The notes: a model not told the origin generated them from the sequence alone. Shown: positions 8,896 to 26,834, numbered from the stretch's first letter. The stretch is 64,000 nt of DNA from an uncultured Chloroflexia bacterium (GCA_963726375.1 CAVSCE010000009.1:546492-610491); one strand, 5' to 3'. Translations and numbers: made by a program.

Positions 8896-10414
8896 ATGGA
8901 GTCGAAAACAAGCATGAATGTTGGTTGGCATGACCATCCGCAAGATAATATCGTCATCTTTATCCCAGGATATATGGGCAGTCGACTTCGCAACCGTGTC
9001 ACTGGTGAGATTGTTTGGATCGATATCCAAAAGATTTTGAAAGATCCATTAGAAATCCATTCCAATTTAATTCATCTTTTCAAGCAAATGCAATTCCCGA
9101 ACGACGACCTGGTTCCAGACGGGATTGTCGAAGAAATCCTGTTCATCCCGCCATTTCTAAAGCAAAAACAATACGGACCACTTATTGATACACTGAAATC
9201 TTGGGGCTTTTCTGCTTCCATGGGGAATAAAGATGGAAAATCATCCAGGCTGTACACATTTGCCTACGACTGGCGGCAGGATAATCGAGAATCAGCAAGA
9301 AAGCTTTCTGCATTGGTACGATTTTTGAACAAGCGGCATCCCAATTCATTAATTTGGATTATTGCGCACAGCAATGGGGGCACCGTGGCACGTTGGTATA
9401 TCGAAAAGGAAGGTGGGAAAGAATTTATCGATCGGCTGTTCTTAATTGCATGTCCATGGGATGGAGCCCCAAAATCCATCCAAACTTTACTTCAGGGACC
9501 AGAAATCTTCTTTTTACGTCTATTCAATCAATTTGGCATTCAGCACTATTTCCAGGAGACTGCTCTCACATTCCCGTCCTTTTACCAACTTATTCCTGGA
9601 TTTCTCCCCTTCCTCAAGCAGGAAAATGGGAGTAAATTCGATCCATTTTTCGATCAGCGCTGGCTATCAAATTCCAGGCAGCGTGATATGCTCGAAAATG
9701 CCAGGAACTTCTACAATGAATTAGGGATGGATTTGAGTGTGGAAACACTTTGCTTTTTTGGTATCAATCAACCAACTGTCAGCGAAGGGATTGTATCGCA
9801 ATCTGCTTCAGGAAAAATTAACAGACATTCGCTGGATAATGGATGAGGAAGGGGATGGGACTATACCTGTCCATAGTGCGGTTCACCCAAATGCGTCCCA
9901 AAAACTCCCATATTCTGCTGACCATGGGGATATCTGCAATTACACACCTATGTTGGAAAAATTGAAGTTTGAATTAATTCAGCGGTACACCATCGGGGAG
10001 CTTGCTGCAGTTCCAGCTTCTCGAATAAAGGTAAGTTTTGATTCTGATCGAGACGTGTACCTTCCAGGTGAAGTTATTCCCATTTCCATCAAGGCATCTT
10101 CAATCGATACCGGACTGCCTATTTATGATCTACAGGTGGAAGTGAACATTCACCAGATTGTAGGTTTAGAGAATTATAAATGGGTCGAATTTACAGAAAA
10201 ATCAGGAACAATTTCCGAACCGTTTTTTTTGGCAGAAGCTTGTAAATCTCCAGGTCGATATGAAGCGAAAGTTACAGCACCAGCCAAGGATGGATATTAT
10301 GAGATGACAGCAAAAATCAAAACAAAAGAATTCGGTGTAGTAATTTGTCGTAAATTAATCCTGATTGAAGGAGATAAGATCGAATTTTCCAAAGGACAGA
10401 TCCCGGAAAATTAA
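8896..10414 (+). CDS. LCAT-like alpha/beta hydrolase (lipase/acyltransferase), frameshifted near 9800
   Basis: FIPGYMGSRL, YDWRQD and the nucleophile elbow AHSNGG are the lecithin:cholesterol acyltransferase family pattern. EEGDGTIPVHSA follows after the shift (ORF 9737..10414). Confidence 0.65.
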
Positions 10415-11409
10415 TGATATTTTTCCTCCAGCTCTGTTCTTTCAAAATCTGAAAGAAATGCTGCCTTGAGCCCATTTTCTTGGATTTGTCGAACCTGGAT
10501 CTGGGATAAACCCGCTGCTGGGGCAGCAACTTCGTATTCATGGATCAAGTCAATACCGCTGATACCCGGATCATCCGTATTTATAGTCGCCAATAATCCT
10601 TGCTCCATGAAGCTCCGGATAGGGTGGCTAAAGTAATCAGGAACCGTGCTGGTCTGGAGATTGCTGGTCAGGTTGCATTCGATTGCGATATGATGTTCCC
10701 TAAGATATTCGATCAGCATAGAATCTTTGAGAGCAGTAACACCATGCCCGATCCGTTCAGCCTTCAATTCCAATACTGCCTGCCAGATGCTCTCCGGACC
10801 CGAACTTTCTCCAGCATGTGCGATGACATGCCAACCGGATTTGCGCGCCTCAAAAAAATGCTCTTTAAACAATACAGCCGGGTAATTCGCCTCATCCCCT
10901 GCCAGATCGAGCGCCGTAATTCTTTCACCCTGGCTGAGTAGTGCACGCAGCTCTTGCCAGCCAGATTTTGGACCATAAGTGCGGCTGATGATTCCAATCA
11001 GTTTTGATTTAAGATCAAACTCTTTTACTCCGGCATCCACCCCATCACATACTGCCTCAACGACCCGCCGAGGGTCGAGCTGATGTGCACCTGACATAAA
11101 GAACGGGGAAAAGCGCAATTCAACATAATCCAAACCTTCAATTTTCGCATCTTGAATATTTTCATAGGCAACCCGCCAACAGGAATCATAATCGACCAGA
11201 ATTTGAATCATCCATTGAAACTTGCCTATGAATTCCATCACTCCCGGCTGAGGATCAGTCACCTGTACATATGGTCTCAAACCTTCGACGTCCCAGGCAG
11301 GGAGATTTAAATTGTGCTTCCGGCTCAGATCGATGATCGTCTCAAGTCGGACACTTCCATCCAGATGGCGGTGGAGATCTACTAAAGGGAAATTGGGATC
11401 ATGGTACAT
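10411..11409 (-). CDS. add: adenosine deaminase
   Basis: Metal-ligand and signature motifs are present: DLHRHLDGS, HAGE and NTDDP. I set the start at the ATG at 11409 (MYHDPNFPLVDLHRH). The track ORF begins at an upstream TTG at 11436. Confidence 0.9.
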   Translation of the reverse strand: MYHDPNFPLVDLHRHLDGSVRLETIIDLSRKHNLNLPAWDVEGLRPYVQVTDPQPGVMEFIGKFQWMIQILVDYDSCWRVAYENIQDAKIEGLDYVELRFSPFFMSGAHQLDPRRVVEAVCDGVDAGVKEFDLKSKLIGIISRTYGPKSGWQELRALLSQGERITALDLAGDEANYPAVLFKEHFFEARKSGWHVIAHAGESSGPESIWQAVLELKAERIGHGVTALKDSMLIEYLREHHIAIECNLTSNLQTSTVPDYFSHPIRSFMEQGLLATINTDDPGISGIDLIHEYEVAAPAAGLSQIQVRQIQENGLKAAFLSDFERTELEEKYH

Positions 11410-11622
11410 AATTTGAATACTGCCTTTCAAATTCAATAAAATGATACTCTACCTCAGCAGCCACCGCAAGTATCTTTGTTGAAATCTGCTCATTATTCGG
11501 GTAGAGATCGACTATAATAGCCAAGTTAATCTAGTTTCGATCGACATTTACGATCAGCAATCGAAAATGCGGGTTGATTTCCAATAAATTCATTAAGGAA
11601 TACTCAAGAAGAGCGAGGGAGC

Positions 11623-12372
11623 ATGATAGAAGGTGAAAATATCGAACCAACAGAAATTAGCGAACCGGAAAGCGGACAAAAAAGTCGGATCCTGATTATT
11701 GGCATTGCGATGCTTCTGGTCGGTTTAATCCTCGGCTATTTAGGCCGTGGCGCATTTGGACCAGAAGCAATTTCAGCTCGGAAGACAGAAACTGCAGCTG
11801 CCGCTGCTGTCCAAACCCAGGTTTCTTCAAATCAGGAAATGATGAAGTCGATTGTGGCCGAAACCATTCATTTCAAGGGAGATCCTGCCGCACCCATAAC
11901 TATGATTGAGTTTAGCGACTTTCAATGACCTTATTGCGGCCGATGGGCAACTGACGCGGGTCGTCAGATTGAAGAAAATTTTGTCAATAAGGGTGATGTA
12001 CGGTTAGGCTATTTTCATTTTGCTTTTCTTGGAGACGAGTCGATAGTCGCTGCTGAAGCGAGCGAATGCGCTGGAGACCAGGATAAATTTTGGGAATATC
12101 ACGACTATTTATTCTCGCATCAAAACGGAGAAAACCAGGGTGCGTTCAGCGAGGAAAATCTGAAAAAATTTGCTCAAGAGATGGGACTCGACCAAAAAGC
12201 TTTCAACTCATGCCTGGATTCCGGCAAATATACTGAAGCTGTCAATCGACAGAATGAGTTTGCTAGAAAATTAGGGGTTCAAAGCACGCCAAGTTTTCTG
12301 ATTAATGGAATTCCATTGGTTGGTGCGCAGCCGATTGAAAAATTTCAAGCATTATTCGAACAATTGAAGTAG
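11623..12372 (+). CDS. DsbA-family thiol:disulfide oxidoreductase with in-frame TGA at the first Cys of CXXC (candidate selenoprotein UPYC, or a nonsense allele)
   Basis: ORFs 11623..11928 and 12181..12372 are in the same frame, and the whole interval is open except for TGA 11926-11928. The context is ITMIEFSDFQ-TGA-PYCGRW, which matches the DsbA/Thioredoxin_4 signature EFsDFQCPYC. An N-terminal TM anchor is present. Confidence 0.7.
11948..11971 (+). promoter_or_regulatory. SECIS-like hairpin downstream of the in-frame TGA
   Basis: The hairpin is CAACUGACG-CGGGU-CGUCAG(A)UUG. It has a 6 bp GC-rich upper stem, 3 further bp below a bulged A, and a 5 nt apical loop containing GGG. The apical loop starts 28 nt after the UGA. 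Confidence 0.45.
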
Positions 12373-12422
12373 AAAATCCAGCTATTCCTTAGGATTCCAA
12401 AGGCAACAGCTTGATTTTCCCG

Positions 12423-12452
12423 AAAAAAGGCGATAAATACATCGCCTTTTTT
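12423..12452 (+). terminator. Rho-independent terminator after the DsbA-like gene
   Basis: AAAAAAGGCGAT-aaatac-ATCGCCTTTTTT forms a perfect stem flanked by an A-run and a T-run. Confidence 0.75.
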
Positions 12453-12570
12453 CTAATCTTGTGGTTTCTCTTTCATGCAATTCAACTTATAGAATTTTTA
12501 AATTCCCAGTCTTATAACCTTGACCGCATCCTTATCTTATGGAAAAATACTTTTTAGGGTTTGTAAATCA

Positions 12571-13140
12571 ATGAGTTCAACCAGCGGCATATATATAAAT
12601 TTAATTGTTTTTGATGGGGATGATACCCTCTGGTTTGGCCTTGATGGAGGTTATATTTCTGGGATCAATTATTCTGATTATGGGAGCGACACGTACACTT
12701 TTCGAAGAATTGGGGAGGATTTTATCGAACGCAATGATGGACAGAGATTTCGTCTGTATCCAGAAGTCCGAAGTTTGCTCGCAAATCTCATGAATATGAA
12801 ACTGCTGATCTCTTTGGCAAGCTACAATCATCCTTCACCAGTTGAGAAAGCATTACACGCATTCGAAATTAATCAATTCTTTCTTCACCCCGTCATCGAA
12901 TACAGCAGTCAAAAAGATAAAATGCTCAAAGCGATACTCCGCAAGTTTTCCCAGTCAGGTTGGCTAGTTAAACCTTCAACAACCCTCTTTATTGATGACG
13001 ATCACCAGAACCGCTATTTGAAACAAATGGAGTTTATTGGTGTACATTTTCTAAAGAAATCTTCAGATATTACAAATCTCAACGAGCTGATAAATAATCC
13101 TAAGTTTCAGCTAGTTCCTGCACAGAAAAGTCTGATTTGA
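12571..13140 (+). CDS. HAD-superfamily phosphatase (MDP-1-like)
   Basis: Motif I is VFDGDDTLW (DxDxT) and motif IV-like is LFIDDD. I set the start at the ATG at 12571. Confidence 0.6.
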
Positions 13141-13175
13141 ATATATTTCAGAAAACTATTACGAGGACTTGCTTA

Positions 13176-13595
13176 ATGAAATCGTATCGTAAAGAGATCT
13201 GGTTAAATATTCCTGCGAGGCGCAGCTTTATCAACATCACTTCGAAAATTGAGGAGTGTTTGCGAGAGAGTGGGATTATCGAAGGTATTGCATTGGTAAA
13301 TGCCATGCATATCACCGCTTCTGTTTTCATTAATGATGACGAAAGCGGTTTGCACAGGGATTATGATGACTGGCTTGAACAACTGGCACCCCATGATCCT
13401 ATCTCAAAATATCGACACAACAGGACTGGAGAAGACAACGCTGACGCCCACCTGAAACGCCAGATTATGGGACGAGAGGTTGTAGTAGCCATCTCAAATG
13501 GCCTCCTTGATTTTGGTCCCTGGGAACAAATTTTTTATGGAGAATTTGACGGACGTCGACCGAAACGGGTGCTTGTTAAAATCATAGGTGAATAA
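13176..13595 (+). CDS. YjbQ/UPF0047 family protein (secondary thiamine-phosphate synthase-like)
   Basis: [23 protein letters not shown]...[42 protein letters not shown] is characteristic of YjbQ. Confidence 0.8.
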
Positions 13596-13720
13596 TCGAT
13601 CAAGCCTGCCTTAATTGCCAGATTTAATAGGCTGGTCTTCTCCTTTGGGAAGTCAACTTCTCCATGCAATTGGAAATGATGTATGATTAGATTCTGTTAA
13701 TTCTTTTCAAGGAGACAAAA

Positions 13721-14075
13721 ATGAAAGCGATAGCCTACATCGCCGCAGCGATTCTGATCTTCTTTGGTGTGCTTTTTGTCTGGGGCGCTTTCAGTTCCGA
13801 AGGGTCCCCTGGTTGGATTCTGGTTGGTTTGATCAGCATTTCAGCAGGCTTTGTGATCATCTGGTTTTTCAGCCGTGCCAAAAAAAGCGAATCGGGATCG
13901 AATATCACCTATCAGGTAGATCTTCCGGCAAATATCAGTCTTGACACTCTTAAATGCAAGTCATGCGGTGGAGCATTTGACCGCTGATAACATTTCGATG
14001 GTGGCTGGTGCACCGGTTGTAAAATGTCCTTACTGTGGAACGAGTTATCAGCTCACCGAGGAACCGAAGTGGTGA
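13721..14075 (+). CDS. small 2-TM membrane protein with C-terminal zinc ribbon (frameshift in a TTT run at about 13975)
   Basis: An AAGGAG ribosome-binding site precedes the start, and two TM helices follow. The ribbon reads CKSCGG...(shift)...LTADNISMVAGAPVVKCPYCGTSYQLTEEPKW*, a CxxC-N19-CxxC arrangement. Confidence 0.6.
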
Positions 14076-14103
14076 CTTTCCTCTTGGAGAAAAGGATGCT
14101 TTC

Positions 14104-15786
14104 ATGAGAAAAATTTATATCTCATTTATTCTTATCTGCTTGATGTTGATTTTCCATGGGACTGGATCGGCACAATCCTATCTTTTTCAGTTGGAACAAC
14201 TGGAAGTCAACATTTATGTGAATGATGATGGATCTGCTTCCATTGATTATCGATTTACATTTGTTAATGATCTTTCAGCACCAAGGATCGAATATGTTGA
14301 TGTTGGGATGCCAAACAGTCAGTTTACACTTCAGGGTGCAACCGCCGAAGTGAACGGACAGACTGTCGCAGTATCTCAATCTGATTATGAGGGTGACGGA
14401 TCGGGTTTTGCCGTAGTGCTGGGTGGAGCTGGTATACCCCCAGGGCAGCGGGGGGAAGTTCATGTGAATATTCCAGATGCCGGAAGTTGGCTCCGGTATG
14501 ACAGCGAGGATGATGGTTACGCAAGCATTGCCTTTACACCTACCTGGTTCGGCTCAGAGTATATCAAGGGCACAACAGAAATAACGGTTTCGATTCATCT
14601 TCCTCCTGGGATCCAACCGGAGGAACCTCGCTGGCACAAAGCTCCATCTGGATGGCCCGAACAACCAGAAGTAAGCCTGGATGAGGAAGGCAGGGTAGTT
14701 TACACATGGACGAATTCGGCAGCATCAGCTTCGAAAAAATATATATTTGGCGCTTCCTTCCCAACTCAATATGTACCTCCAACAGCAGTAAGTAAGCCCT
14801 CCTGGTTTGAAATCCTTGGCATCAGCGAAGATACATGTTTCACATTTCTTTGCTGCGGAGGGATTTTTGCTTCGGTTATCGGTGTGGGATGGTGGAATAA
14901 TGAGGCATCCAGAAAACGAAAATTAAAATATCTTCCACCAAAAATCACGATCGAAGGTCTCGGGATCAAACGCGGACTTACAGCTGTCGAAGCAGCCATA
15001 CTCATGGAACAACCACTCGATAAAGTGATGACCATGATCCTTTTCGGAGTCCTGAAGAAAGCAGCTGCGACAGTCCGCACAAAAGATCCGCTTGAATTAG
15101 ATGTCGTAGAAATACTTCCTGATGGGTTAAATCCATATGAAGTTGATTTTCTCAAGGCTTTTAGATTACAGGAAAAAACCGAACGCCGAAAAGCTCTGCA
15201 AACAGTCACCATAGATATCGTTCAAGCCGTTTCCGCAAAGATGAAGGGGTTCAGTCGAAAGGAGACAATCGCATATTACCAGGATATTATGGAAAAAGCC
15301 TGGAAGCAAGTTGAAACGGCTCAAACACCGGAAGTGAAGAGCGAAATGTTTGATAAAAACCTGGAGTGGACCATGTTGGATAAAGAATATGACGACCGCA
15401 CCAGGGATGTTTTCCAATCAGGTCCTGTTTACCTACCTAACTGGTGGGGCCGATTTGATCCAACATACAACAGACCAATCAGTACCTCCCGACCTATTTC
15501 ATCCCCTACCCAGGTGGGGCAACCTTCCGGAGGCGGCGTTTCGCTACCAACACTTCCCGGCGGCAGCTTTGCTGCATCGATGGTCAATGGAGTGGAAAAT
15601 TTCTCTGCTGGCGTCATAGGAAATGTAAATGATTTCACCAGAACTATCACAAACAAAACAAATCCAATCCCGGTTCCAAGCGTAACAAGAAGCGGCGGCA
15701 GCAGCAGCGGAAGGAGCGGTGGGGGATGTGCCTGCGCCTGTGCCTGTGCTGGCTGTGCGTGCGCTTGCGCCGGTGGAGGTCGATAG
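14104..15786 (+). CDS. DUF2207-like membrane protein with a C-terminal Gly/Ser spacer and (Cys-Ala)n tail
   Basis: The signal peptide is MRKIYISFILICLMLIFHGTGSA. It is followed by an extracytoplasmic beta-rich domain, one TM helix (FTFLCCGGIFASVIGVGWW), and a cytoplasmic region (GLTAVEAAILMEQPLDKVMTMILFGVLKK). The protein ends in SGGSSSGRSGGGCACACACAGCACACAGGGR*. Confidence 0.65.
   Translation: MRKIYISFILICLMLIFHGTGSAQSYLFQLEQLEVNIYVNDDGSASIDYRFTFVNDLSAPRIEYVDVGMPNSQFTLQGATAEVNGQTVAVSQSDYEGDGSGFAVVLGGAGIPPGQRGEVHVNIPDAGSWLRYDSEDDGYASIAFTPTWFGSEYIKGTTEITVSIHLPPGIQPEEPRWHKAPSGWPEQPEVSLDEEGRVVYTWTNSAASASKKYIFGASFPTQYVPPTAVSKPSWFEILGISEDTCFTFLCCGGIFASVIGVGWWNNEASRKRKLKYLPPKITIEGLGIKRGLTAVEAAILMEQPLDKVMTMILFGVLKKAAATVRTKDPLELDVVEILPDGLNPYEVDFLKAFRLQEKTERRKALQTVTIDIVQAVSAKMKGFSRKETIAYYQDIMEKAWKQVETAQTPEVKSEMFDKNLEWTMLDKEYDDRTRDVFQSGPVYLPNWWGRFDPTYNRPISTSRPISSPTQVGQPSGGGVSLPTLPGGSFAASMVNGVENFSAGVIGNVNDFTRTITNKTNPIPVPSVTRSGGSSSGRSGGGCACACACAGCACACAGGGR
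15727..15771 (+). repeat. coding (Cys-Ala)4-Gly-(Cys-Ala)3 tract
   Basis: The codons are TGT GCC TGC GCC TGT GCC TGT GCT GGC TGT GCG TGC GCT TGC GCC. Synonymous codons are mixed, so the repeat holds at the peptide level and is not a clean DNA microsatellite. Confidence 0.9.
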
Positions 15787-15835
15787 ATTTGAATGAAGAT
15801 TTCGTGATGATTTTTATTCTTTGAGGTCGTATTTG

Positions 15836-17187
15836 ATGGATTTCCGGAAATATTTCGCAAGATCAAGACGGACTTAACCTGCGAACTCGCATGGTATTCA
15901 GCTTTCATCCTTTATTCGCGATAATGGTTCTGAAAAGGCACATATTCACCTGCGAATAGATACAGACGGAAGTGGTCTCTTGATCATCAACGCAAACAGC
16001 GTAATTCACTTGAATCTGATCAGCAGCATCGATGGCACTCCTGGCGTTACAAGACACTCCTAAAGCCCAAGCAGTTCATGAACTTAAGAGGAAATTCTCA
16101 ACATCGACTCACAAGATATCTGGTGACTATACGCAGTTTGTTTCGCAATTAAACGAACTGATTGATCCAAATGGCGCCTGTCCCATTCATGCTCTAAATC
16201 TTGAAACCATTCCTCCTTTCACAACAAAGCCTTCGGCTCCCTATCGAATGGACATAGCCTTGACCTACCGCTGTAACAATGATTGCTTTCATTGTTATAA
16301 CGCCCGACCTCGTGATTTTTCAGAAATTTCAACGGATGCTTGGAAGAAAATCATCGATAGGATTTGGGAAATTGGCATCCCCCATTTGGTTTTCACGGGT
16401 GGAGAACCGACGCTCCGGCCAGACTTACCGGAACTGATTGCCTATGCGCAGCACGTCGGACTGATCACTGGATTAAATACCAATGGTCGTTCGTTAAGCA
16501 AGCCTAATTATCTGGAAACACTGGTCAGCTCTGGATTAGACCACGTACAAATCACAATAGAATTCTCACGACCCTCAGATCCACGACCAGATGGTTCGAG
16601 CTAAGGGTGCCTGGTCACAAACTGTTGCTGGAATTCGCAATGCGTTGGACACCCCACTTTACGTAATGACCAACTCTACGATGTTGCGCCAGAATTCACC
16701 ATCAATGAACAAGACACTTCATTTTCTTGCCGAACTCGGAGTGCCGACGATCGGCCTGAATGCCTTGATCTTTTCCGGTTCAGGTGCTACATGCGGAAGC
16801 GGGCTTCATGAGGCAGAATTGCGGCCGATTCTCGAGCTTGCTCGAAACCTGACCGAGCTTCATCATCAACGGCTGATCTGGTACACACCTACCCAATATT
16901 GCAATTTTGACCCGATGGATCTGGATCTTGGTGTCAAAGGATGTACTGCCGCCCGCTACAATATGTGTATCGAACCGGATGGAGCAGTCATCCCATGCCA
17001 ATCATATTATTTTCCCCTGGGTTCGATGCTCAACGATCCATGGGACAGCATCTGGGAACATGATCTGGCAAACCAGCTGCGGAATCGCCAGGAACGGCAG
17101 GAAAAATGTAATTCCTGTCAATTATTTTCAGAATGTGGTGGTGGGTGCCCGTTATCTTCGACGCATAATCCAAATAATAAAGAATAG
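15836..17187 (+). CDS. radical SAM/SPASM peptide-maturase-like enzyme with a PqqD/RRE-like N-terminal domain; disrupted by an in-frame TAA at 15875 and two frameshifts
   Basis: The radical SAM motif is CNNDCFHC (CxxxCxxC), and GGEPTL is present. The SPASM signature is exact: CIEPDGAVIPC (G-x4-C) followed by CNSCQLFSECGGGC (Cx2Cx5Cx3C). The N-terminus HLRIDTDGSGLLIINANSVIHLNL...DYTQFVSQLNELID follows the PqqD pattern. The fragments are 15836..15877, the frame up to about 16025, 16032..16604 and 16591..17187. Confidence 0.8.
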
Positions 17188-17199
17188 TCAGAGGAAAAA

Positions 17200-18345
17200 A
17201 TGCCAGGTATGCTCCGTCCAATTCAGCGTTTTTTTTCCAACAACAAACCAATTCCTGCCGGTCTTTATCACTACAAAGCACCGCAGCACGATCCGCGTAA
17301 CTACCAATTGCATTTACGTATCGAAGAAAACGGTGATGGGCTGCTGATCATTAACGCTTCGACGGTTCTTCATCTAAATTTGACCGCTGCAGAATATGCG
17401 TATTATCTCATCTGCAGCAAATCCGAAGAAGAGATCGCTCGTCTAATGGTTACTCGCTATCAGGTCGATCATGATCAAGCGCTGCAGGATTACAGGAATT
17501 TCTCAGATCGAATCCACACGATCATCGAGACACCCGATTTGGACCCGGTCACTTTTCTTGACGTCGACCGCCTTCAACCCTTTTCTGGTAGATTGACTGC
17601 ACCGTATCGTCTGGATTGTGCATTAACCTATCGACTTCCCGAGGATGAAAATCCCGAATTAGAACTGATCGAACGCGTGTCAAGGGAACTGACAACTGAA
17701 GACTGGAAAACCATTATGCAGAAAGCGTGGGATGCAGGCATTCCGCACATACTATTCACTGGCGGAGAGCCAACGCTTCGTGATGATTTACCTGAGCTGA
17801 TCCGCTTTGCAGAGCGAACCGGTCAGGTTACTGGATTATTAAGTTATGGATCAAAGCTCGTTGATTCCAGCTATTTTTCTGAACTCCTTCAATCTGGATT
17901 AGATCATCTGATGCTGATCTTAAGATCTGATAACGAGTCGTCATGGAAATCCGTTCAGAGTTCGATTGCTGAAGATCTATCCCTGACAGTACACCTGACA
18001 ATTGATCACGAAAATAAGGGAGATTCCGAGGCGATCTTACGCCGACTTGCCAAAATAGGAATAGTGAACGTCTCTCTGAGTGCAGTTGATGATTCGCTCG
18101 CCGAATACCTTCAATCTGCGAGGTCATGGGTTGCTGCTCTTGGCCTTGAGCTGATCTGGAACCTTCCAGCTCCTTATTCATCCCTACACCCGATTGCACT
18201 AGAAAATAAAGATGCAGGTATCGAAGGTGCGGGGCGAGCATGGATTTACGTTGAGCCAGATGGTGATGTCCGTCCATCACAAGGCAATCCGAAAATCTTG
18301 GGGAATATCCTGACCGATCCCTGGAATAAAATATGGAAAGGTTGA
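17200..18345 (+). CDS. Cys-less paralog of the preceding radical SAM/SPASM enzyme (degenerate radical SAM fold with a PqqD/RRE-like N-terminus)
   Basis: It aligns by eye with the upstream gene along its whole length: HLRIEENGDGLLIINASTVLHLNL, APYRLDCALTYR, IPHILFTGGEPTLRDDLPELI and YVEPDGDVRPSQG. CxxxCxxC is replaced by LPEDENPE, the SPASM cysteines are absent, and the C-terminus is truncated. A GAGGA ribosome-binding site precedes the ATG. Confidence 0.75.
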   Translation: MPGMLRPIQRFFSNNKPIPAGLYHYKAPQHDPRNYQLHLRIEENGDGLLIINASTVLHLNLTAAEYAYYLICSKSEEEIARLMVTRYQVDHDQALQDYRNFSDRIHTIIETPDLDPVTFLDVDRLQPFSGRLTAPYRLDCALTYRLPEDENPELELIERVSRELTTEDWKTIMQKAWDAGIPHILFTGGEPTLRDDLPELIRFAERTGQVTGLLSYGSKLVDSSYFSELLQSGLDHLMLILRSDNESSWKSVQSSIAEDLSLTVHLTIDHENKGDSEAILRRLAKIGIVNVSLSAVDDSLAEYLQSARSWVAALGLELIWNLPAPYSSLHPIALENKDAGIEGAGRAWIYVEPDGDVRPSQGNPKILGNILTDPWNKIWKG

Positions 18346-18433
18346 ACAGGAAATCGAAGTCCAAAGCACTCCCCTAACACAAAAAATCGATTGGCATCCA
18401 CGTTTTGTCCAGCAGGCACGCTGGACTGAAGAT

Positions 18434-19150
18434 TTGCGCAGGTTTATTCTGCGCCAAATCGATCTCTTTGATAGAAGCAGTGTCCTCGAAGTGGGCTGCG
18501 GGACTGGCGCTGTCCTTGAAACGATAACAGGGCTCGCACATGCGAATAGTTGGATTGTGTCTGGAGTGGACATAAATATTAATTACTTGACTTCAGCCCA
18601 CAAGATTTGTCCTACATTCGGGCTGACTTAAGGCGATGCGCATTTCTTACCGTTCTCTCAGGGATATTTTGACCTCGTTTTTTGCCATTTTCTGTTGATG
18701 TGGGTCTCAAATCCTATAGCTGTATTATTTGAAATGAAGCGTGTTGTCCGTCCTGGAGGTTGGGTCGTAGCATTCGCAGAACCAGATTATGGAGGCCGAA
18801 TCGACGAACCAGAAGAGTTAGAGAAAATCAGCGCGATTCAGGAATTAAGCCTGAAGCAGCAAGGCGCTGAAACTCGGATGGGGCGAAAATTGTCAGGATT
18901 ATTCCATCAAAACGGTTTCGTCGATATCGAATGTGGTGTGATGGGTGCTCAGTGGAACCAATCTTCAATTCGCAGCTCTGAAGAATCCGACCAGGAATGG
19001 CAGGTGATGAAGTCTGATCTGAACCGCTTCAATAGTATTCATAACTTCGAGGAATTCCGATTAATGGATCTGGCTGCCAGACAATCAGGGTCCCGCATCC
19101 TGTTTGTACCTACTTTTTATGCGATGGGACGCGCACCAAACGATAAATAA
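18434..19150 (+). CDS. class I SAM-dependent methyltransferase with an in-frame TAA at 18629-18631
   Basis: Motif I is VLEVGCGTGAV, followed by GDAHFLPFSQGYFDLVFCHFLLMWV and MKRVVRPGGWVV. ORFs 18434..18631 and 18695..19150 share a frame and are separated only by the TAA. The frame is open upstream to 18314 without a canonical start, so the true start is uncertain and probably abuts the paralog stop. Confidence 0.75.
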
Positions 19151-19151
19151 A

Positions 19152-19186
19152 AGATCATGCTGGGGACAACATCCCCAACATGATCT
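19152..19186. terminator. bidirectional hairpin between the convergent methyltransferase and araB
   Basis: AGATCATGCTGGGGA-caac-ATCCCCAACATGATCT forms a 15 bp stem with one mismatch. Confidence 0.65.
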
Positions 19187-19207
19187 TGGAAAGATTTTTA
19201 AGAATTC

Positions 19208-20884
19208 TTATTGAGATCTCGAATTGGCCTTGATTATTTTCAAACGCTTCATGACATCATTTGCCCCTCTTCCAAAATAGTCATGCAAAGATAAGTATTC
19301 TGCGAAGAGCTTATCATAAACAGCACTGTTCTCGGGGATTGGCTTATAAGTGATATCTTTCAACTTTGCCATTTTCTTTGCAGCATCGAATATTGAATCG
19401 TAACCACCTGCATTCTTACCAGCAGCAACAGCTCCAAACATAGCGGATCCCAAAGCCGGGGTCTGGCTTGAGGCAGTAATCTTCATCTCACGACCTGTGA
19501 CATCAGCATAAATTTGCATGAGCAAGCGGTTGCGATCCGGAAGCCCACCGCAAGCGACCAGCTCGTTAACAGGCACTCCATTCTTCTCAAAGGCTTCGAC
19601 AATTACGCGAGTGCCGTATGCAGTCGCTTCAATCAAAGCCCGATAAATCTCTTCTGCTTTTGTAGCCAGGGTTGCGCCGATCAACAGTCCTGTCAGATCG
19701 ACATCGACCAGCACGCTCCGATTACCATTCCACCAATCGAGAGCCAGCAAACCGCTCTCGCCAGGCTTAAGTAAAGCGGCTTTTTCTTCGAGCAGGGAAT
19801 GAGTGGAAATTCCTCTCTTCCTGGCTTCATCCTCATATGCTGCTGGAATGCAATTTTCGACAAACCAGGCAAAATGATCACCAACGCATGACTGCCCGGC
19901 TTCGTATCCAAACAGTCCGGGGATGATTCCATCTTCCACATATCCACAAATTCCAGGCACTAGCTGCTCACTGTCGCCCAGCACCATGTGGCAAATGCTG
20001 GTTCCCATGATCATGACCATGCGGCCGACCTCAGTGACTGTTGCTGCCGGAACTGCGACATGTGCATCTACATTCGCTATTGCTACAGCCGTTCCTGGCT
20101 TGAGACCAGTCCAATCAGCAGCCTGCTTCGTCAATTCACCAGCCTTCTGGCCGATCGGAATGATCTGCTTGCTCATCTTTTTCTCGACAACATCAGCCAG
20201 GCGAGGGTCTAAAGCTCGAAAATAATCTTCCTCTGGAAAACCATCCCTTTTTGACCACATGGCTTTATATCCAGCCGTACAAGAGTTGCGGGTCTCAATC
20301 CCTGTCAACTGCCAGATCACCCAATCTGCAGCCTCGATCAATCGATCTGCAGCTTGATAAATTTCAGGCGCCTCATCCAGAATTTGCAGGGTCTTCGAGA
20401 AAAACCATTCGGAGGAAATTTTCCCCCCGTATCTTTCAAGCCACTCCTGGTTCAAATCTCGAGCAGTTTCATTGATTTTATTTGCCTCTGGCTGGGCTGC
20501 ATGGTGTTTCCAGAGCTTTACCCAGGCATGAGGGTTGTTCCGAAGCTCGGGTAAATTGCACAAAGGCGTTCCATCTGATTTCACCGGAAGCATGGTGCAG
20601 GCTGTAAAATCAATCCCAATCCCGATTACATCGGCAGGGTCCACTCCTCCCATTTTAATTACGGTTGGAACAGCTGTTTTGTATACTTCGATGTAATCAT
20701 TAGGATCCTGCAGCGCCCAGTCCGGTCCGAGTTGTACGTTCGTTTGGGGAATTTTTTCGTCAATAACGCCATTTGAATAAGGGTGGACGGATGTGGCGAT
20801 TTCTTCACCTGTAGCCACATCCACAAGCAGAGCTCGGCCAGATTCAGTCCCAAAGTCTACACCAATGGAATACTTCTTTGCCAT
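19208..20884 (-). CDS. araB: ribulokinase (FGGY family)
   Basis: The N-terminus [25 protein letters not shown] is typical of AraB, and the protein is full length at 558 aa. Confidence 0.85.
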
Positions 20885-20893
20885 ATTATTCTC

Positions 20894-21903
20894 CTAATCA
20901 TTTGAATGCGGTTCGATTATGACTTTTAATCCATCGCGCTTTGCGGCTATTTCAAATGCCTTTTCAACCATATTCAAAGGAAACCTGTGGGTGACCAATG
21001 TTCGAACATCAATCAGCCCATCTTCTACCAACCGAATCGCACGAGGATAAGTATTATTCATTCTGCGACACAAAATGATCTGAAGTCCCTTTCTGCGTGC
21101 AGTCGAGGCGCAAAATGCTATTTGATCTTTGGCTGGTATCCCCACAATAACAACAGTCCCTCCTGGTCTGGCAGCAGCAACTGCACTCTCAACTGCCTCC
21201 GGCTCACCAGCCGTCTCAAAAACAATATCTAATCCTCGATTCCCAATTTGTTGATTTAGCTGATTAGGATGTCCATCTTGATCAACAAGCAGCTGAAGAT
21301 CTGACCCAAGCGATTGGGCTTTCTTCAGTCGATGTTCTAAACGGTCAGAAGCCGCTATCATTCTGGGACGTCTCAATTTCAGAAGCTGTATCAACAACAG
21401 GCCGATGGGTCCACATCCAAAAACTCCCAGCTGCATTCTTGGATGCATTTGTACCAGGTCATGGGCATAGATCGCCACTCCAAGCGGCTCGAGCATCGCG
21501 CCATCTATTGCATTAAAATCCTTCGGCAGCCGAAATATTTTATTAACCGGCCAGCAAATATATTCCCTTAGCGCACCATCCATTTGACCATGACCCGCAA
21601 ATTTTACTTCCGGACACAGGTTGTGATTTCCTTCACGACAGGATTCGCATTTTCCACACGGAACAGCTGGATCTAATGCAACAAGCTGCCCGCTTGTGGT
21701 GTCAAAAGCTGAACATTCATGACCTAATACAAGTGGTTTTGTTAAGACAGAATCCCCGATTGCCGTGTCAATCATCCAGTGGATGTCCGATCCGCAGATG
21801 CCAACAGCTTCAACTCTTAAAGAGCTTCTCCTTTACCAGGAGATGGGCGCTCCTCTTCATGGATTCTAAAATCATTCCTGCCGTGCAAACGCACTGATTT
21901 CAT
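20894..21903 (-). CDS. zinc-dependent alcohol/polyol dehydrogenase (sorbitol/threonine dehydrogenase-like), frameshifted near 21800
   Basis: The N-terminus MKSVRLHGRNDFRIHEEERPSPGKGEAL...VEAVGICGSDIHW is in a shifted frame. ORF 20894..21775 carries GHE and the CGKCESC structural zinc site. The ATG overlaps the upstream stop (ATGA at 21900-21903). Confidence 0.8.
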
Positions 21904-22992
21904 GTTACTTCAAGAATTGCCGGTCTTTTTATTTTCTGCCCAACGTACTCAATTGAAATCATCGGCCAATCAGGAATTTGCGTAATTACCTCGTTCTCAT
22001 TTTCGCCTACCAGGATTGTATCCTCTGATTTTGTCCCTCTAATCGATGGATTCCAGGCATAAGCCTGTCCAGTCGATATCATATCCTCACTACCCGGAAC
22101 AGCGAGATATTCACGCGGCTCGTAACCTGCCGGTCCACCCTGATGATGATCCATCCATTCATCGGCAAAACCAGTCTGTGAATACTCGTTGCGGGCTGTT
22201 TCAATTACATCTCCCAGGCTGCTTCCTGGGCGGGTTTGCAGGATCATTCCAGCGTCGACCCTTGCAACTGCATGAGATTTTCTAAGAAGTTCTTCCGGCA
22301 GGTGTCCAAAGTAAACCAGCCGGGTAATTGAGCAAACCAGACCCTTGTACCTCCCGCACATCACCAGCATCCCATATTTTTCGAGCCGCTTTGAAGTTGG
22401 GAGCGGGTGACGATAAGAGAATATGCGGTCATCTGTCGCAATAAGGTTGACGATTGGTTGAACTTCGCGGCTTAATGCGCCGCCAGCGACGAGCGCAGCA
22501 ATCTGGTATTCGCTCATTCCCGGAGTGACCAATCGGATTGCAGAATTCATCGTTTCTGCGCAAAGATTTCCTAAGGTGCGGAAACGGTGGATTTCTTCAG
22601 GGGTCAGTAAAGTCCTCATCCTGGAAATTTCAACGGAAAGATCCAATCCGTCCAAGATGGGTCCATCACAACCTATTCTATTTCCACCTGCGAGGGAGGC
22701 CAGATTTGCAGGATTTCCATGCCATTGTCTGATTTGGATCTTCCAGCCCTGATCCTCGAGCTTTTCTTCCCCCTTCAAGCGCGTGGATTCGATATTGTCA
22801 GTCAGAACAAAACGACCAGTCCGAGTGATCAGCAATGATGCAGCACCATCTGTTGAGGCGGAATTCACAAAAGACGCCGCTCCGCATGTCGCCCAGGCGA
22901 AGCTGCTCACTCTTTCTTAACAACAAACCGTCCAGACGATGTTTATCGAGAAGGGATCGAATCCGTTCCAGCTTGGTTTCTATTTCAACCAT
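21900..22992 (-). CDS. M24 family metallopeptidase (Xaa-Pro peptidase/creatinase-like), frameshifted near 22850
   Basis: The N-terminal creatinase-like segment MVEIETKLERIRSLLDKHRLDGLLL lies in ORF 22798..22992. The pita-bread domain lies in ORF 21900..22910. Confidence 0.65.
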
Positions 22993-23016
22993 TGCAGCCT
23001 CTAATTTTCTGAGCTA

Positions 23017-24463
23017 TTAACTCATGTGATTATAAACATTCCACCCAAAGTATTTTGTGAAAGACTTATCTAAGATTGATGAGATTTTGGATGGGTTAAT
23101 CGCGACGTGATGCTCAAATCCATTGTTGCAAATATAAGCAAGGAGCTTCTGCAAGTTCGGGATTTTGACAACTCCGTAACCACCAAATGTTTTCAAGGGG
23201 TCGTTAGTTAACTCTCCCTCACCGATATATGCAGAAATTTTCCCATTGAAATCATCTGTGGATACCCTGCAGTATGAAAAGGGCATCGCTTTAACCCTTC
23301 CTACGATGGTTCCGTAAGTGCTGTCTTTTCCAACTGTGCCTGCGATAATCGCCTGGTAATCCATGGTAGGGATATCTTCGGCAGAGATCGTTTCATCGAC
23401 AAAAATATCCTTTGGAAGATTCGAACAATGGAAGACAACCCCCATATCAGGTTCATTGGCATAGTTATTGTTCCAATCGACCAGTGCACTAGGTTTCCCA
23501 GAAGCTAAAACCATGGCATACATACCTACTACTCCTGCAATATCTGTCTCACAGGCAGAAGGCATTAATCCGTTTGACATCATGCTCATTAGCGTGCAAG
23601 GTACCACTCCATAAAATTCTTCCATGGCTGTCCAGCACTGCAGGGCGCTTGCATCGAGGTTATTCTCTTCCATCCATGCATCAATGACAGCACCCAGGCG
23701 CGCCATACGGTCCAAGGCTGCCTTGGGAATACCAGTGGTTTTCACATAGGACAGCATTTCCTCCTTTTTTGCTTGAAACCTGGGATCTTCATCTTTTATT
23801 CGAATTGCTTTTCCGAACATTTCTGAAAGATCGATCGTTGTCGTTGAAATCCCACTCCGTTCCAGCAGTTTCTCGCTATAACGTACGGTGTTGAAATTGG
23901 TCGGCCGTGCTCCAATCGCACCCAACCTTGCCCTTCGAAGACCTTTTACAACCCTACAAATGCCCACAAAACGATTTAAATCGGCGAGAAAACTTTCACT
24001 TTCTGGATCTATCGTGTGCATTGTTGTAAGCGTAAAACGTATGCCATATTGTGTGAGGTTGTTACAGCATGACATTTTTCCACAGAATGAATCTCGCCTG
24101 TCGGCAATCGTCATCTTTGACATATCATCAGGAAACGCATGGATAAGCACAGGAACATTTAAATCCGCCCATCGAAGTGCATTTGCCACCGCACGCTCAT
24201 CACCAAAATTGGGTAGTGTAACCAACACGCCATCGATTTCATCTTTATGCAGCTTAAAAAGATCCGCACATTTCTGCGAATCCGAGATCGAACTCAATAC
24301 TTCCGTTAAGCGTATCATTTGGAGTTAATGCAATCGCTGTGATCCCCTGGCTTTCAAGAACTTTTAAAATCGTTTTTCGACCACTGTCACAAAGATGGTT
24401 GGGGAAAAATCCGCGATTCCCAACAATAACACCGAGTACAGGTTTCTTTTCAAGAATGTTCAT
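23017..24463 (-). CDS. L-fucose/L-arabinose isomerase family protein, frameshifted near 24300
   Basis: The N-terminus KPVLGVIVGNRGFFPNHL lies in ORF 24254..24463. ORF 23017..24318 has the pattern typical of FucI-like isomerases: LPNFGDERA, RLGAIGARPTNFNTVRY and FEHHVAIN. Confidence 0.7.
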
Positions 24464-24800
24464 TTTCTACTCCATTTCTAGATTGAATAATATCAACTTG
24501 CATTTTTACCTGAATATTTTACATTCAATTTTTAATATTTTACTAAGGCTGACTACTTATTTGTCTGTTCCAATCCCAAGATCGACTGAAAAGAGCAGAT
24601 TACATAAGATTGATTTGGCGATCGCAAACAAGATATAATTTGATATACCAGGTCAAAATGTTATTAAGACGCGAAAATTTTATATGTTATCGTGTCCGGG
24701 AACGTTATCATTCTATCATGATATTAAACGCATCACTAGAGAACCAGGAGATGTATTTATTCCCCAGAAATTGAACAAAACCTCCAGTTGAAATTTCTTA

Positions 24801-25148
24801 TCAATCTTTAGGAATACCGATTTCAATCATACCGGCATTGGTTCTTACCGGATAAGCTGGAATATCCACAAATGCTGGCAAGGAAAGTGCTTTTCCATCC
24901 CTGATATCGAACCTGGCCCCATGTCTCGGACACACAATCTCGAACCCTTCAATCTCACCTTCACCAACCGGACCATCGTCATGGCTGCAGATATCTTCTA
25001 TAGCGAAGAATTTACCAGCAATCTCGAACAGGACAAGCGAAATGTTATCGATCTCAAAAAATAATCTTTCACCTGGCGTAAAATTATCCTGTTGAACAAC
25101 TGGAATAAATTCAAGATTTCCAGAGTCCCGCATTGAATAATTAAACAC
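24801..25148 (-). CDS. Rieske [2Fe-2S] domain protein (last gene of the suf operon)
   Basis: The Rieske ligands are CSHDDGP...CPRHGARF. Confidence 0.85.
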   Translation of the reverse strand: MFNYSMRDSGNLEFIPVVQQDNFTPGERLFFEIDNISLVLFEIAGKFFAIEDICSHDDGPVGEGEIEGFEIVCPRHGARFDIRDGKALSLPAFVDIPAYPVRTNAGMIEIGIPKD

Positions 25149-25174
25149 GTTAATCTCTCGTCACTTAATTGAAC

Positions 25175-25570
25175 TCAGTCAACTAAATCGTCGCTGGCTT
25201 CTCCCAAACCATAAACCCCAGCCTTCAAGACTTTCAGCGACAACAATGCGCATTTCAGACGAACTGGACCCAACTCCAGGCCTAATAATTCCAGTAGATC
25301 TTCTTTTGAAAATTGTTTTACTTCTTCGACCGATTTATTTATGACAGAATCTAACAATAGATCCGCAGATGCCTGCGAAATCGCACATCCATGTCCTTCA
25401 AAGACAGCCTCGTTGATCCGATTACTCGAGTCTACTCGCAGTTCGATTCGAATGTGATCCCCACAAAGCGGATTATCGTCTTCGAAGGCAATGTCGTGCG
25501 GGACAAGGTTTCCGCGATGTTGAGGATTTTTATAACGATCAATTATTATTTCTCGATAAAGGTCATCCAT
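25175..25570 (-). CDS. sufU: SUF system Fe-S scaffold SufU (NifU/IscU-like)
   Basis: The sequence reads YREIIIDRYKNPQHRGNL, NPLCGD and GHGCAIS. I set the start at the ATG at 25570, just after the sufS stop. Confidence 0.88.
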   Translation of the reverse strand: MDDLYREIIIDRYKNPQHRGNLVPHDIAFEDDNPLCGDHIRIELRVDSSNRINEAVFEGHGCAISQASADLLLDSVINKSVEEVKQFSKEDLLELLGLELGPVRLKCALLSLKVLKAGVYGLGEASDDLVD

Positions 25571-25583
25571 AGAAATTACTTTC

Positions 25584-26834
25584 TTATAATCTAAAGAATT
25601 CACGAACCTTGTACAGTGATTCGGCTAGATGATCGACTTCTTCTTTTGTGGAATAAAGATAAAAACTAGCCCTGGCAGTTGCGGGTAATCCATATTTCTC
25701 ATGAAGGGGCATCGCACAGTGGTGTCCTGCGCGAATTGCGATCCCAGATCGATCTAATATTTGAGAGATATCATGAGGATGAATCCCAGAAAGCGTAAAA
25801 GAGACTACACCGCCGCGGTACTCGGCTTTTGGACCAATGACTTGAACGCCTGGGATTTCTTCAAGCCGTTCCATCGCATAAGCCACAATCCATTTTTCAT
25901 GGTCAGCAATCGCTTGCATGCCAATCGTATTCAAGTAATCAATTGCAGCATTGAAACCAATTCCTTCAGCAATTGCTGGCGTTCCAGCTTCGAATTTATG
26001 AGGCAGCTCGTTTGGTGCGAATGACCTCAAATGGACGCGTTTGATCATATCTCCACCACCTAAGAATGGTGGCATCGCGTCCAGCATCTCTCTCTTCCCG
26101 AATAATACTCCTATCCCGGTCGGTCCGCACATCTTATGAGCGGAGAAAGCTATAAAATCTGCATCCAGTTCTTTGACGTCGACCGGTAAATGCGGTACTG
26201 ATTGTGCTGCATCGACTAGCGCTACAGCTCCAGCCTGATGAGCCAGGTGAATAATCTCCCTGGCTGGATTAATCGTCCCGAGGACATTGGACATATGGGT
26301 AAATGCTACAAGTTTTGGTTTAAGCTCAAGTAATTTGGCATATTGGTCGATATCCAGCAGACCATCTTCGCCGACAGGGATGAATTCCAAACGAAGATCT
26401 ATCTCCGTTGCAAGGATATGCCATGGTACTAAATTGGAATGGTGTTCCATTTCAGTGAGTATGACGACATCGCCTGTCTTGAGAAATTTTCTCCCCCACG
26501 AATAAGCCACAAGATTTATTGATTCTGTTGTATTCCTGGTAAAGATCACCTCCCTCGATGAGGCGGCATTGATAAAACTCGCAACTTTTTTTCTTGCCAA
26601 CTCGTAACCTGCAGTCGATTCCTCAGCAAGCACATGAATCCCCCGATGGATATTTGCATTGGACTCTCTGTAAAAATGATCCATGGAATCGATCACAATC
26701 TGGGGTTTTTGGCTCGTAGCTGTTGAGTCCAGATAGACCAGTTTAATTCCGGGGTGGACATCACGATTTAAGATTGGAAAATCCGAGCGAATACGATTTA
26801 TATCAAAGAATTGTTCTGGTTTGTGATCCATCAT
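25584..26834 (-). CDS. sufS: cysteine desulfurase SufS
   Basis: It is a 416 aa class V aminotransferase. It carries the SAHKMCGPTGIG PLP lysine and the RAGHHCA active-site cysteine loop. Confidence 0.92.
   Translation of the reverse strand: MMDHKPEQFFDINRIRSDFPILNRDVHPGIKLVYLDSTATSQKPQIVIDSMDHFYRESNANIHRGIHVLAEESTAGYELARKKVASFINAASSREVIFTRNTTESINLVAYSWGRKFLKTGDVVILTEMEHHSNLVPWHILATEIDLRLEFIPVGEDGLLDIDQYAKLLELKPKLVAFTHMSNVLGTINPAREIIHLAHQAGAVALVDAAQSVPHLPVDVKELDADFIAFSAHKMCGPTGIGVLFGKREMLDAMPPFLGGGDMIKRVHLRSFAPNELPHKFEAGTPAIAEGIGFNAAIDYLNTIGMQAIADHEKWIVAYAMERLEEIPGVQVIGPKAEYRGGVVSFTLSGIHPHDISQILDRSGIAIRAGHHCAMPLHEKYGLPATARASFYLYSTKEEVDHLAESLYKVREFFRL

Follow-up and report, generated by a model that had tools for sequence, protein, structure and literature searches.

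Radical S-adenosylmethionine (SAM) enzymes that contain a SPASM domain and depend on a RiPP recognition element (RRE; RiPPs are peptides that are synthesized ribosomally and modified after translation) are known chiefly for producing small peptide natural products and cofactors derived from peptides. A 64,000-nucleotide stretch of DNA from an uncultured Chloroflexia bacterium (GCA_963726375.1, CAVSCE010000009.1:546492-610491; the whole of this stretch is hereafter called the window) appears to encode such an enzyme, gene 3, within a cassette of five co-directional genes at 13721-19150 (+), and no separate gene for a small precursor peptide accompanies it. What, then, does the enzyme act on? 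An original prediction, made from this sequence alone, proposed that the machinery modifies the Cys-rich C-terminal tail of the membrane protein encoded by gene 2, which ends just before the start of the enzyme gene.

Comparison of related loci shows that the tailed gene and the radical SAM gene are near-obligate neighbors, and that the tail is strictly C-terminal and invariant at the protein level. We are therefore inclined to regard the cassette as a protein-tethered, RiPP-like maturation system, conserved across the Anaerolineales, in which the tail of gene 2 probably serves as the tethered substrate of gene 3. If true, this would extend RiPP-type chemistry to the stable modification of a cellular protein, with the machinery hard-wired to the C-terminus of a large membrane protein. 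The protein family of gene 2 is large and unannotated, and the order of bacteria in which the system occurs is abundant, poorly understood and common in wastewater, sediments and digesters.

Linkage of a Cys-Ala tail and a radical SAM gene

Gene 2 (14104-15786, +), whose open reading frame (ORF) is whole in the window, encodes a membrane protein of 560 residues with the C-terminus GGGCACACACAGCACACAGGGR (...SGGGCACACACAGCACACAGGGR). The tail proper, CACACACAGCACACAGGGR (15727-15783, +), consists of two CACACAG heptads, then GGR, then the stop codon, and is the putative tethered substrate. Among 80 species-representative genomes found with a profile of gene 4, 72 of 73 gene 2 homologs end in ...CACACAGCACACAGGGR followed by a stop, 67 of them exactly in CACACACAGCACACAGGGR; the sole homolog without this ending is encoded on a visibly frameshifted contig. 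The rest of gene 2 is only 44-67% identical among homologs. In a 41-sequence alignment (A2) with a mean column identity of 66%, residues C544-R560, the final 17, show no variation and the two preceding ones almost none, an unusually strong constraint among relatives of this overall identity. The tail is encoded by 72 distinct DNA versions, among which each position shows all of its synonymous codons and each of the three stop codons occurs; selection therefore acts on the peptide and not on the DNA. Its Ala and Gly positions are as invariant as its Cys, and the only replacements at them, seen in distant lineages, are Val, Ser, Asp, Asn and His. Sites recognized by an enzyme, or acceptor sites, would account for this pattern better than the simple ligation of a metal.

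The gene 2 family is large, with ~1000 clusters at 50% identity and thousands at 90%, and its more distant members show how the tail can vary. Some carry CACACAG-CACACACAGGGR, some replace the hinge G between the repeats by S, VS or DS, some have a single (CA)3-7GGGR repeat, and others have three repeats with Val for some of the Ala. As read from these sequences, the general form appears to be (Cys-small)n repeats ending in CACACAGGG[R/A] and a stop. On its 5' side the tail is preceded by a conserved, ‘leader-like’ stretch at residues ~482-525 (...LPTLPG..FAAS...NVTDFT..ITNKTNPxP) and then by a variable Gly/Ser linker, and the last ~80 residues of gene 2 would thereby resemble the leader-linker-core layout of a RiPP precursor. 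Tandem copies of gene 2, each with its own tail, are present in loci L025, L159, L182 and L206, and look like the multi-copy precursor genes of RiPP clusters.

Linkage can be read from either side. The order of genes 1 to 5 is kept from a 93%-identical relative (locus L001) down to relatives that are ~60% identical, and the cassette is found across the 80 genomes, including those of the cultured Pelolinea submarina, Ornatilinea apprima, Bellilinea caldifistulae and Levilinea saccharolytica. In the genomes with at least 3.6 kb of sequence upstream of gene 4, a tailed gene 2 lies upstream in 62 of 63, gene 1 in 61 of 63 and gene 3 in 60 of 63; L081, which lacks genes 1-3, is one exception on this enzyme side. 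From the tail side, metagenomes were scanned with a degenerate DNA pattern that represents the tail only, which yielded at least 120 loci. A stop codon directly follows the tail in 120 of 120 listed metagenome loci, the tail is attached to a gene 2 body in 96 of the 98 listed with enough upstream DNA, and the radical SAM gene comes next in 75 of the 78 listed with enough downstream DNA; gene 4 is also present in 38 of the 50 listed tail loci with at least 3.2 kb downstream. Among the exceptions on the tail side are L125, L191 and L152, described below, and L155 and L172, whose gene 2 reading frames are disrupted or truncated. The original prediction had suggested looking for enzyme pairs that lack a Cys-tailed neighbor and for tails that occur without the enzymes, and by these counts both are rare. 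The linkage that its tethered-tail hypothesis implies is thus borne out in both directions; any modification of the tail, and the chemistry of it, we infer.

The cassette does vary in composition. Divergent variants (L093, L104, L148, L150, L184, L192 and L206) have genes 1, 2 and 3, and usually the methyltransferase gene (gene 5), without gene 4. Tail and radical SAM gene are therefore the invariant core, to which the paralog encoded by gene 4 is not essential; from its distribution, gene 4 appears to be a later duplication, added at the level of the Anaerolineales. In L152 and in L027, the latter from the set of genomes, the canonical gene 3 is gone from beside genes 1, 2 and 4, and a divergent radical SAM gene on the opposite strand is found instead, together with a short gene 2-like protein. 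This second pair (L152, 5434-8051, -; L027, 2138-4769, -) includes a divergent, putatively RRE-bearing radical SAM/SPASM enzyme ~40% identical to gene 3, and its gene 2-like partner (331 residues in L152) keeps the GGIRRGLTPPEAA cytoplasmic module and has neither the ectodomain nor the Cys-Ala tail. Another arrangement is seen in L125 and L191, which represent a divergent lineage. There the next gene after the tailed gene 2 (L125, 3428-4159; L191, 10983-11663) encodes a ~230-residue protein whose N-terminus is signal-like and which contains CxxC motifs in pairs (CDECGY ... CPxCG) and ‘IAVNITNNH’ as a repeated unit; pyruvate:ferredoxin-oxidoreductase-like genes then follow on the other strand.

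Components of the cassette

ORF listing and three-frame translation of the window place genes 1 to 5 on the + strand, separated in order by 28, 49, 12 and ~0 nt, with genes 4 and 5 abutting. This agrees with the compact operon of the original prediction (gaps of ~12-50 nt), and so does the absence of a separate precursor gene, for which gaps of 12-49 nt leave no space. The convergent hairpin that the prediction had placed at the operon end is likewise present (19151-19187), with a 17-bp stem and a 3-nt loop, separating gene 5 (+) from a convergent FGGY kinase gene (-). On the - strand, where the terminator scan scores it, the stem is followed by a T-run, and on the + strand TTTTT occurs 9 nt past the stem; the hairpin looks like a bidirectional terminator. 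An Rfam scan of the 64-kb window detected no structured RNA in the cassette, the only match above gathering score being a distant tRNA gene (52967-53038, -).

Gene 3 (15836-17187, +; 449 residues once repaired, as described below) is a radical SAM/SPASM enzyme with an N-terminal PqqD/RRE-like domain. Its SAM-cluster motif, of the form CxxxCxxC, is CNNDCFHC (16272-16295). The seven-Cys SPASM motif Cx9-15Gx4C...Cx2Cx5Cx3C...C binds two auxiliary clusters, and gene 3 has the complete Cys set (Cx12Gx4C ... Cx2Cx5Cx3C, 16900-17148), with CTAARYNMCIEPDGAVIPC and CNSCQLFSECGGGC legible in the sequence. The repaired translation scores 89.7 bits against Pfam Radical_SAM (PF04055; cutoff 29.5) and 38.1 bits against SPASM (PF13186; cutoff 21.5), so that the family originally assigned to this enzyme, with its full set of cluster ligands, holds. 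Among the best 25 of the 72 NCBIfam matches of gene 3, all scores are far below the cutoffs: the highest (~125-130 bits) are those of NirJ2 (130 vs. 500), PqqE (TIGR02109; 128.3 vs. 381) and AhbD, AhbC is also among the top matches, and MftC (TIGR03962) follows at 97.3 vs. 265. On score, gene 3 is a member of neither the PqqE nor the MftC family. The known thioether-forming maturases SkfB, AlbA and StsB score lower still (~67-70 bits), and sequence similarity therefore does not point to sactipeptide chemistry over PqqE-, NirJ- or MftC-like chemistry. The closest solved structures by sequence are those of PqqE (6c8v, E = 1e-17), BlsE, SkfB, SuiB and CteB (5wgg).

Gene 4 (17200-18345, +; ORF whole in the window) encodes a paralog of 381 residues, colinear with gene 3 (33% identity over 375 residues, E = 2e-66), which by its sequence and position appears to have arisen by duplication of the adjoining gene 3. 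It has no iron-sulfur (Fe-S) ligands: RLPEDENPELE takes the place of CNNDCFHC, the GGE motif is kept (FTGGEPTLR), and the protein ends just past a Cys-free SPASM beta-hairpin (YVEPDGDVRPSQ vs. CIEPDGAVIPCQ in gene 3). It reaches 33.4 bits against Radical_SAM, yet lacks the CxxxCxxC motif. The original description of gene 4 as a twin without cluster motifs is thus correct, except that the protein is not literally Cys-less, as it contains two Cys, of which C140 is invariant in the family. The PqqD family (PF05402; cutoff 23.4 bits) is matched below cutoff by both window proteins, at 17.6 bits for gene 3 and 18.0 bits for gene 4, and it matches 19 of 26 members of the gene 4 family, with a best E value of 5e-6. 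In an AlphaFold2 (AF2) model of gene 4, residues 21-109 adopt the topology beta-beta-beta(-beta)-alpha-alpha-alpha, which fits the winged-helix beta3-alpha3 domain of PqqD, and are followed by a partial barrel. Its fold matches are PqqE (the closest), BlsE, SkfB and SuiB, and the alignments to SuiB span ~350 columns with the N-terminal domain included.

The remaining enzyme, gene 5 (18314-19150, +; the frame opens at 18314), was predicted to be a class I SAM-dependent methyltransferase and proves to be one (Methyltransf_11/25): it scores 65.1 bits against Methyltransf_11 (cutoff 21.2) and contains the GxGxG motif, in VLEVGCGTG. Its best NCBIfam match, the DVU_1556 family, reaches 58.5 bits against a cutoff of 155, and gene 5 is not a member. 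For genes 1-4, no curated NCBIfam model reaches its cutoff. Gene 1 (13721-14075, +) encodes a small membrane protein of ~117 residues with two N-terminal transmembrane (TM) helices and a C-terminal CxxC-x17-CxxC zinc ribbon, as had been predicted; the ribbon is presumably cytoplasmic. The sole family match of gene 1, to TIGR04104, is weak (21 bits vs. a cutoff of 45).

Gene 2 begins with a signal peptide or TM helix, after which come, in order, a beta-sandwich outside the cytoplasm (residues 28-220), a TM helix (242-275), a winged-helix-like module with a helical domain, and the C-terminal region. In its AF2 model the ectodomain has a predicted local distance difference test score (pLDDT) above 90, and the C-terminal 120 residues are disordered. 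A fold search with this model returned ribophorin I and the N-domain of M1 peptidases as nearest folds. The earlier view of gene 2 as DUF2207-like has to be abandoned, as no hidden Markov model of DUF2207 or TIGR04222 matches it; indeed, searches of Pfam (E<=10) and of NCBIfam (E<=0.01) gave no match for gene 2 at all. The only likeness is one of layout (ectodomain beta-sandwich, TM helix, cytoplasmic part), as in ribophorin I. Of its 4630 homologs, none of the 120 listed carries a Pfam domain, and the listed ones are labeled ‘hypothetical protein’ in their sources, except for one labeled ‘IscA’ by JGI. The ~500-residue body, including the ectodomain, is well conserved. The tail is predicted to be cytoplasmic, because SRKRKLKYLPPK stands after the TM helix and the positive-inside rule would then place what follows in the cytoplasm. 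Some homologs are longer (~770 residues; P0241-P0244, P0250 and P0232), and their extra N-terminal ~240 residues match the profile a second time, which looks like a duplicated ectodomain.

State of the window copy and its surroundings

The original prediction had implicitly read all of the genes as intact. In the window, however, three of them are interrupted by five lesions, and genes 2 and 4 are whole. An extra T at 13978 shifts the frame of gene 1 by +1. Gene 3 is interrupted three times, by a TAA in frame (15875-15877) and by one additional base each at ~16018 and at 16564 (a T), and a further in-frame TAA (18629-18631) interrupts gene 5. Gene 5 also has no ATG, GTG or TTG start within 18314-18434 ahead of the TTG at 18434, only ATC or ATA codons. 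The relative L001, which aligns to window positions 9213-26235 at 92.7% nucleotide identity, is open at all five lesion sites, with CAA (Gln) at both TAA positions (...LTQGDAHFLPF in gene 5), and has single-base frameshifts of its own, different ones, in genes 2 and 4. Its gene 1 reads through to 117 residues, and removal of the two inserted bases from the window copy of gene 3 restores a protein of 449 residues that is 91% identical to its gene 3. Recoding of the in-frame stops of genes 3 and 5 as selenocysteine is excluded, both being TAA rather than TGA, at positions where the relative has Gln.

The lesions could be real mutations in a decaying pseudogene cluster. Five of them fall within 5.4 kb, two are C-to-T nonsense substitutions and not indels, and the neighboring genes at 19208-22910 look intact, all of which would suit decay. 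However, no lesion is shared with L001, and ratios of non-synonymous to synonymous substitution (dN/dS) between the window and L001 are low (gene 1, 0.145; gene 2, 0.062; gene 4, 0.083; gene 5, 0.19; the flanking genes for adenosine deaminase and the FGGY kinase are similar, at 0.13 and 0.047), which indicates purifying selection up to the present. Genes outside the cassette, the housekeeping recJ among them, are split in like manner: recJ (47854-50351, -) has DHH and DHHA1 in one ORF, and the following ORF holds RecJ_OB from profile position 18 onward; the gene of a reprolysin-like metallopeptidase (32371-34192, +) is split near 33270; and an LCAT-like gene (+) differs from L001 by an indel of one base at ~9824. 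These splits point to indel errors throughout the window, and scattered frameshifts of the same kind are seen in several contigs of related long-read metagenome-assembled genomes (MAGs), such as L004, L005, L025, L042 and L082. Because L001 is whole at all five sites and bears other lesions, other window genes are split, and dN/dS is low, the five lesions most probably reflect assembly error and not gene decay, and we hold a pseudogene cluster in this genome to be improbable.

Around the cassette, gene clustering over the 80 loci gave no constant additional partner: flanking genes and genes inserted between genes 3 and 4 are clade-specific, and some of them resemble, from their sequences alone, lipid-metabolism enzymes, a PAS-domain protein and a signal peptidase. 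Across these loci there is no peptidase or exporter among the conserved members or neighbors of the cassette, and no gene for a small-molecule pathway enzyme is a constant neighbor. Genes for Rieske, NifU and SufS proteins (Fe-S assembly) lie 3' of the cassette on the opposite strand of the window (24801-26834, -), and in L002-L004 they directly abut the methyltransferase gene. This neighborhood is found in only ~17-18 of the 80 loci, including the clade of the window, and probably reflects clade history with no functional link.

On the 5' side of the cassette is a gene for a DsbA/thioredoxin-like protein (11623-12372, +) with an in-frame TGA (11926-11928) at the first Cys of its CPYC active-site motif (FSDFQ-TGA-PYCG). 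The same TGA is present in L001, and L002 has Cys at this position; past the TGA the frame is intact and 62% identical to L002. A hairpin, CTGACG-CGGGT-CGTCAG, lies 3' of the TGA, in a region that folds no better than shuffled sequence. The gene is a candidate for a selenoprotein with a selenocysteine (UxxC) motif rather than a broken gene.

Proposed maturation, its rivals and its relatives

From sequence and genomic context, we infer that the tail would be the substrate, which atoms might be modified, and what genes 1, 4 and 5 may contribute. The last ~80 residues of gene 2 would comprise a recognition stretch (...FAAS...NVTDFT..ITNKTNPxP), the Gly/Ser linker and the invariant core (CACACAG)2-GGR. 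Gene 3, with an N-terminal RRE-like domain of the PqqD type and ligands for the SAM cluster and for two auxiliary clusters, would bind the tail and carry out radical chemistry on it. The likeliest chemistry, and the first that one would guess, would be Cys-centered crosslinking through sactionine-, ranthionine- or lanthionine-like thioethers to the neighboring, alternating Ala; chemistry of another kind at Cys or at Ala C-H would also be possible. Gene 4, having lost all cluster ligands and kept the RRE-like domain and the GGE motif, may act as a non-catalytic, substrate-holding partner, in which case the active enzyme and its cluster-less duplicate would be a clean example of radical SAM maturases recruiting such partners. 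Gene 5 might methylate the tail at a thiol, at the C-terminal carboxylate or at another site, and gene 1, the constant fifth component, would be a membrane-anchored zinc ribbon on the same membrane face. The tail offers one defined tryptic or C-terminal peptide for mass spectrometry, and cultured carriers are available in Pelolinea, Bellilinea, Levilinea and Ornatilinea.

Several points weigh against modification of the tail by gene 3. The case for it is built from genomic linkage and sequence layout, and the cytoplasmic placement of the tail depends on the positive-inside rule and one predicted TM helix. In the window itself, gene 3 is formally broken. The genomes L011 and L062 contain genes 1, 2 and 4 and lack an intervening gene 3, and L125 and L191 have a tailed gene 2 with no radical SAM gene within 2.7-5 kb downstream or 9 kb upstream. 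The thioether maturases SkfB, AlbA and StsB score only ~67-70 bits on gene 3, against cutoffs of 300-850. Finally, CxCxC motifs are typical of metal-binding proteins.

This last point leads to a different reading of the locus, in which the tail is a metallothionein-like module that binds metal or Fe-S clusters on the cytoplasmic face, gene 2 is a scaffold, sensor or metal donor instead of a substrate, and a tetrapyrrole, a lipid or some other small molecule is what the radical SAM enzyme, its paralog and the methyltransferase act on. The seven Cys in CxCxCxCxxCxCxC do resemble metal-binding motifs, the tetrapyrrole enzymes NirJ2, AhbD and AhbC are among the top NCBIfam scores of gene 3, and Rieske, NifU and SufS genes occur just downstream on the other strand in the clade of the window and in ~17 of the 80 genomes. 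However, the Suf-gene neighborhood is not kept across the family and no small-molecule pathway gene is constant nearby. Nor does simple ligation call for non-Cys positions as invariant as the Cys. The tail always occupies the very C-terminus, with a conserved stretch and a flexible linker ahead of it, which is a precursor-like layout, and genes 3 and 4 both appear, by sequence and model, to carry a peptide-binding RRE-type domain. We regard this reading as unlikely.

Two further alternatives keep the peptide chemistry and change the product or the substrate. Gene 2 might be an unusually large precursor whose modified tail is cut off, for example after the Gly run, and freed as a peptide or a peptide-derived cofactor, the way in which the nearest relatives of gene 3 make PQQ and mycofactocin. 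A Gly-Gly run lies directly before the core, PqqE comes closest among solved structures, in sequence to gene 3 and in fold to gene 4, and PqqE and MftC are among the better NCBIfam matches of gene 3. Release seems quite improbable to us, however, in view of the conserved 500-residue body, which argues that the whole protein is the functional product, and of the lack of a conserved peptidase or exporter in or near the cassette. The cassette might also be a conventional RiPP cluster with an overlooked small precursor gene, as RRE-bearing radical SAM/SPASM enzymes usually adjoin one. The intergenic gaps (28, 49, 12 and ~0 nt) have no room for it, the genes inserted between genes 3 and 4 are unrelated housekeeping genes that differ by clade, and the tail of gene 2 is the only element invariably beside the radical SAM gene, which makes an overlooked precursor highly improbable.

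If the tail is indeed the tethered substrate of gene 3, a further and distinctly speculative step, which we would not expect to hold, is that the radical SAM enzyme, its partner and the methyltransferase mature it into a novel prosthetic group that permanently remains tethered to the protein, at the cytoplasmic end of a receptor or scaffold in the membrane that nearly all Anaerolineales possess. Such a group could be a thioether-laddered or otherwise crosslinked Cys-derived cofactor, serving in redox reactions or metal binding, and would, if real, constitute a class of protein-derived cofactor without described counterpart.

Literature on radical SAM/SPASM and RRE enzymes in Anaerolineae and Chloroflexi, on the CACACA motif and on GeoRSP contained nothing specific to this cassette, the only relevant mention being generic antiSMASH ‘RRE-containing’ counts in Anaerolineae MAGs (PMC11748557). 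With the GeoRSP-type systems, to which the original prediction had likened the locus, the cassette shares a related enzyme pair and putative PqqD-type recognition, and it differs from them in taxon and partner genes.

GeoRSP systems (TIGR04302-04304) combine a related radical SAM/SPASM-type pair with PqqD-type recognition and an undefined substrate. Membership is rejected by score (TIGR04303; 98.8 bits for gene 3 and 27.6 bits for gene 4 vs. a cutoff of 400), and no GeoRSP SPASM-protein or PqqD model is among the matches listed for genes 3 and 4. The pseudo-SAM/SPASM family TIGR04347 embodies the same idea as gene 4, a radical SAM/SPASM fold without catalytic Cys, and again neither protein belongs to it (115 bits for gene 3 and 39 bits for gene 4 vs. 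a cutoff of 525).

Closer parallels are functional. PqqE/PqqD/PqqA and MftC/MftB/MftA are pathways to peptide-derived cofactors, and the cassette resembles them in its putative PqqD-type RRE and in chemistry that would be directed at the C-terminal residues of a ribosomal product; unlike them, it has a putative RRE that is fused rather than separate, a putative substrate that is membrane-tethered, and no peptidase or downstream tailoring enzymes of its own. Precedent for a protein as the substrate of a radical SAM/SPASM enzyme, rather than a peptide, is provided by QhpD, which acts on QhpC, and by anSME, which acts on sulfatases, both modifying Cys in full-size proteins. Their substrates are soluble and export-bound and, unlike the cassette, these systems are not known to involve a Cys-Ala repeat tail, an inactive paralog or a conserved methyltransferase; the QhpD and anSME families are absent from the best 25 of the 72 NCBIfam matches listed for gene 3.

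In SCIFF/ranthipeptide and sactipeptide systems (CteB/CteA, SkfB, AlbA), an RRE-bearing radical SAM/SPASM maturase acts on a Cys-rich C-terminal core. The cassette likewise sets an enzyme of this apparent architecture beside a Cys-rich C-terminal sequence, and in both the substrate gene can be multi-copy. It departs from these systems in that the putative substrate is the tail of a 560-residue membrane protein, not a peptide of ~45 residues, that the core is the invariant (CACACAG)2GGR, and that a Cys-poor paralog, a methyltransferase and a membrane zinc-ribbon protein are added. As far as sequence comparison allows, we rate as known the RRE-dependent radical SAM/SPASM machinery of RiPP biosynthesis. 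What we rate as new is that a conserved membrane protein would itself be the precursor, that its Cys-Ala core is invariant and that the enzyme is accompanied by an apparently dead paralog.

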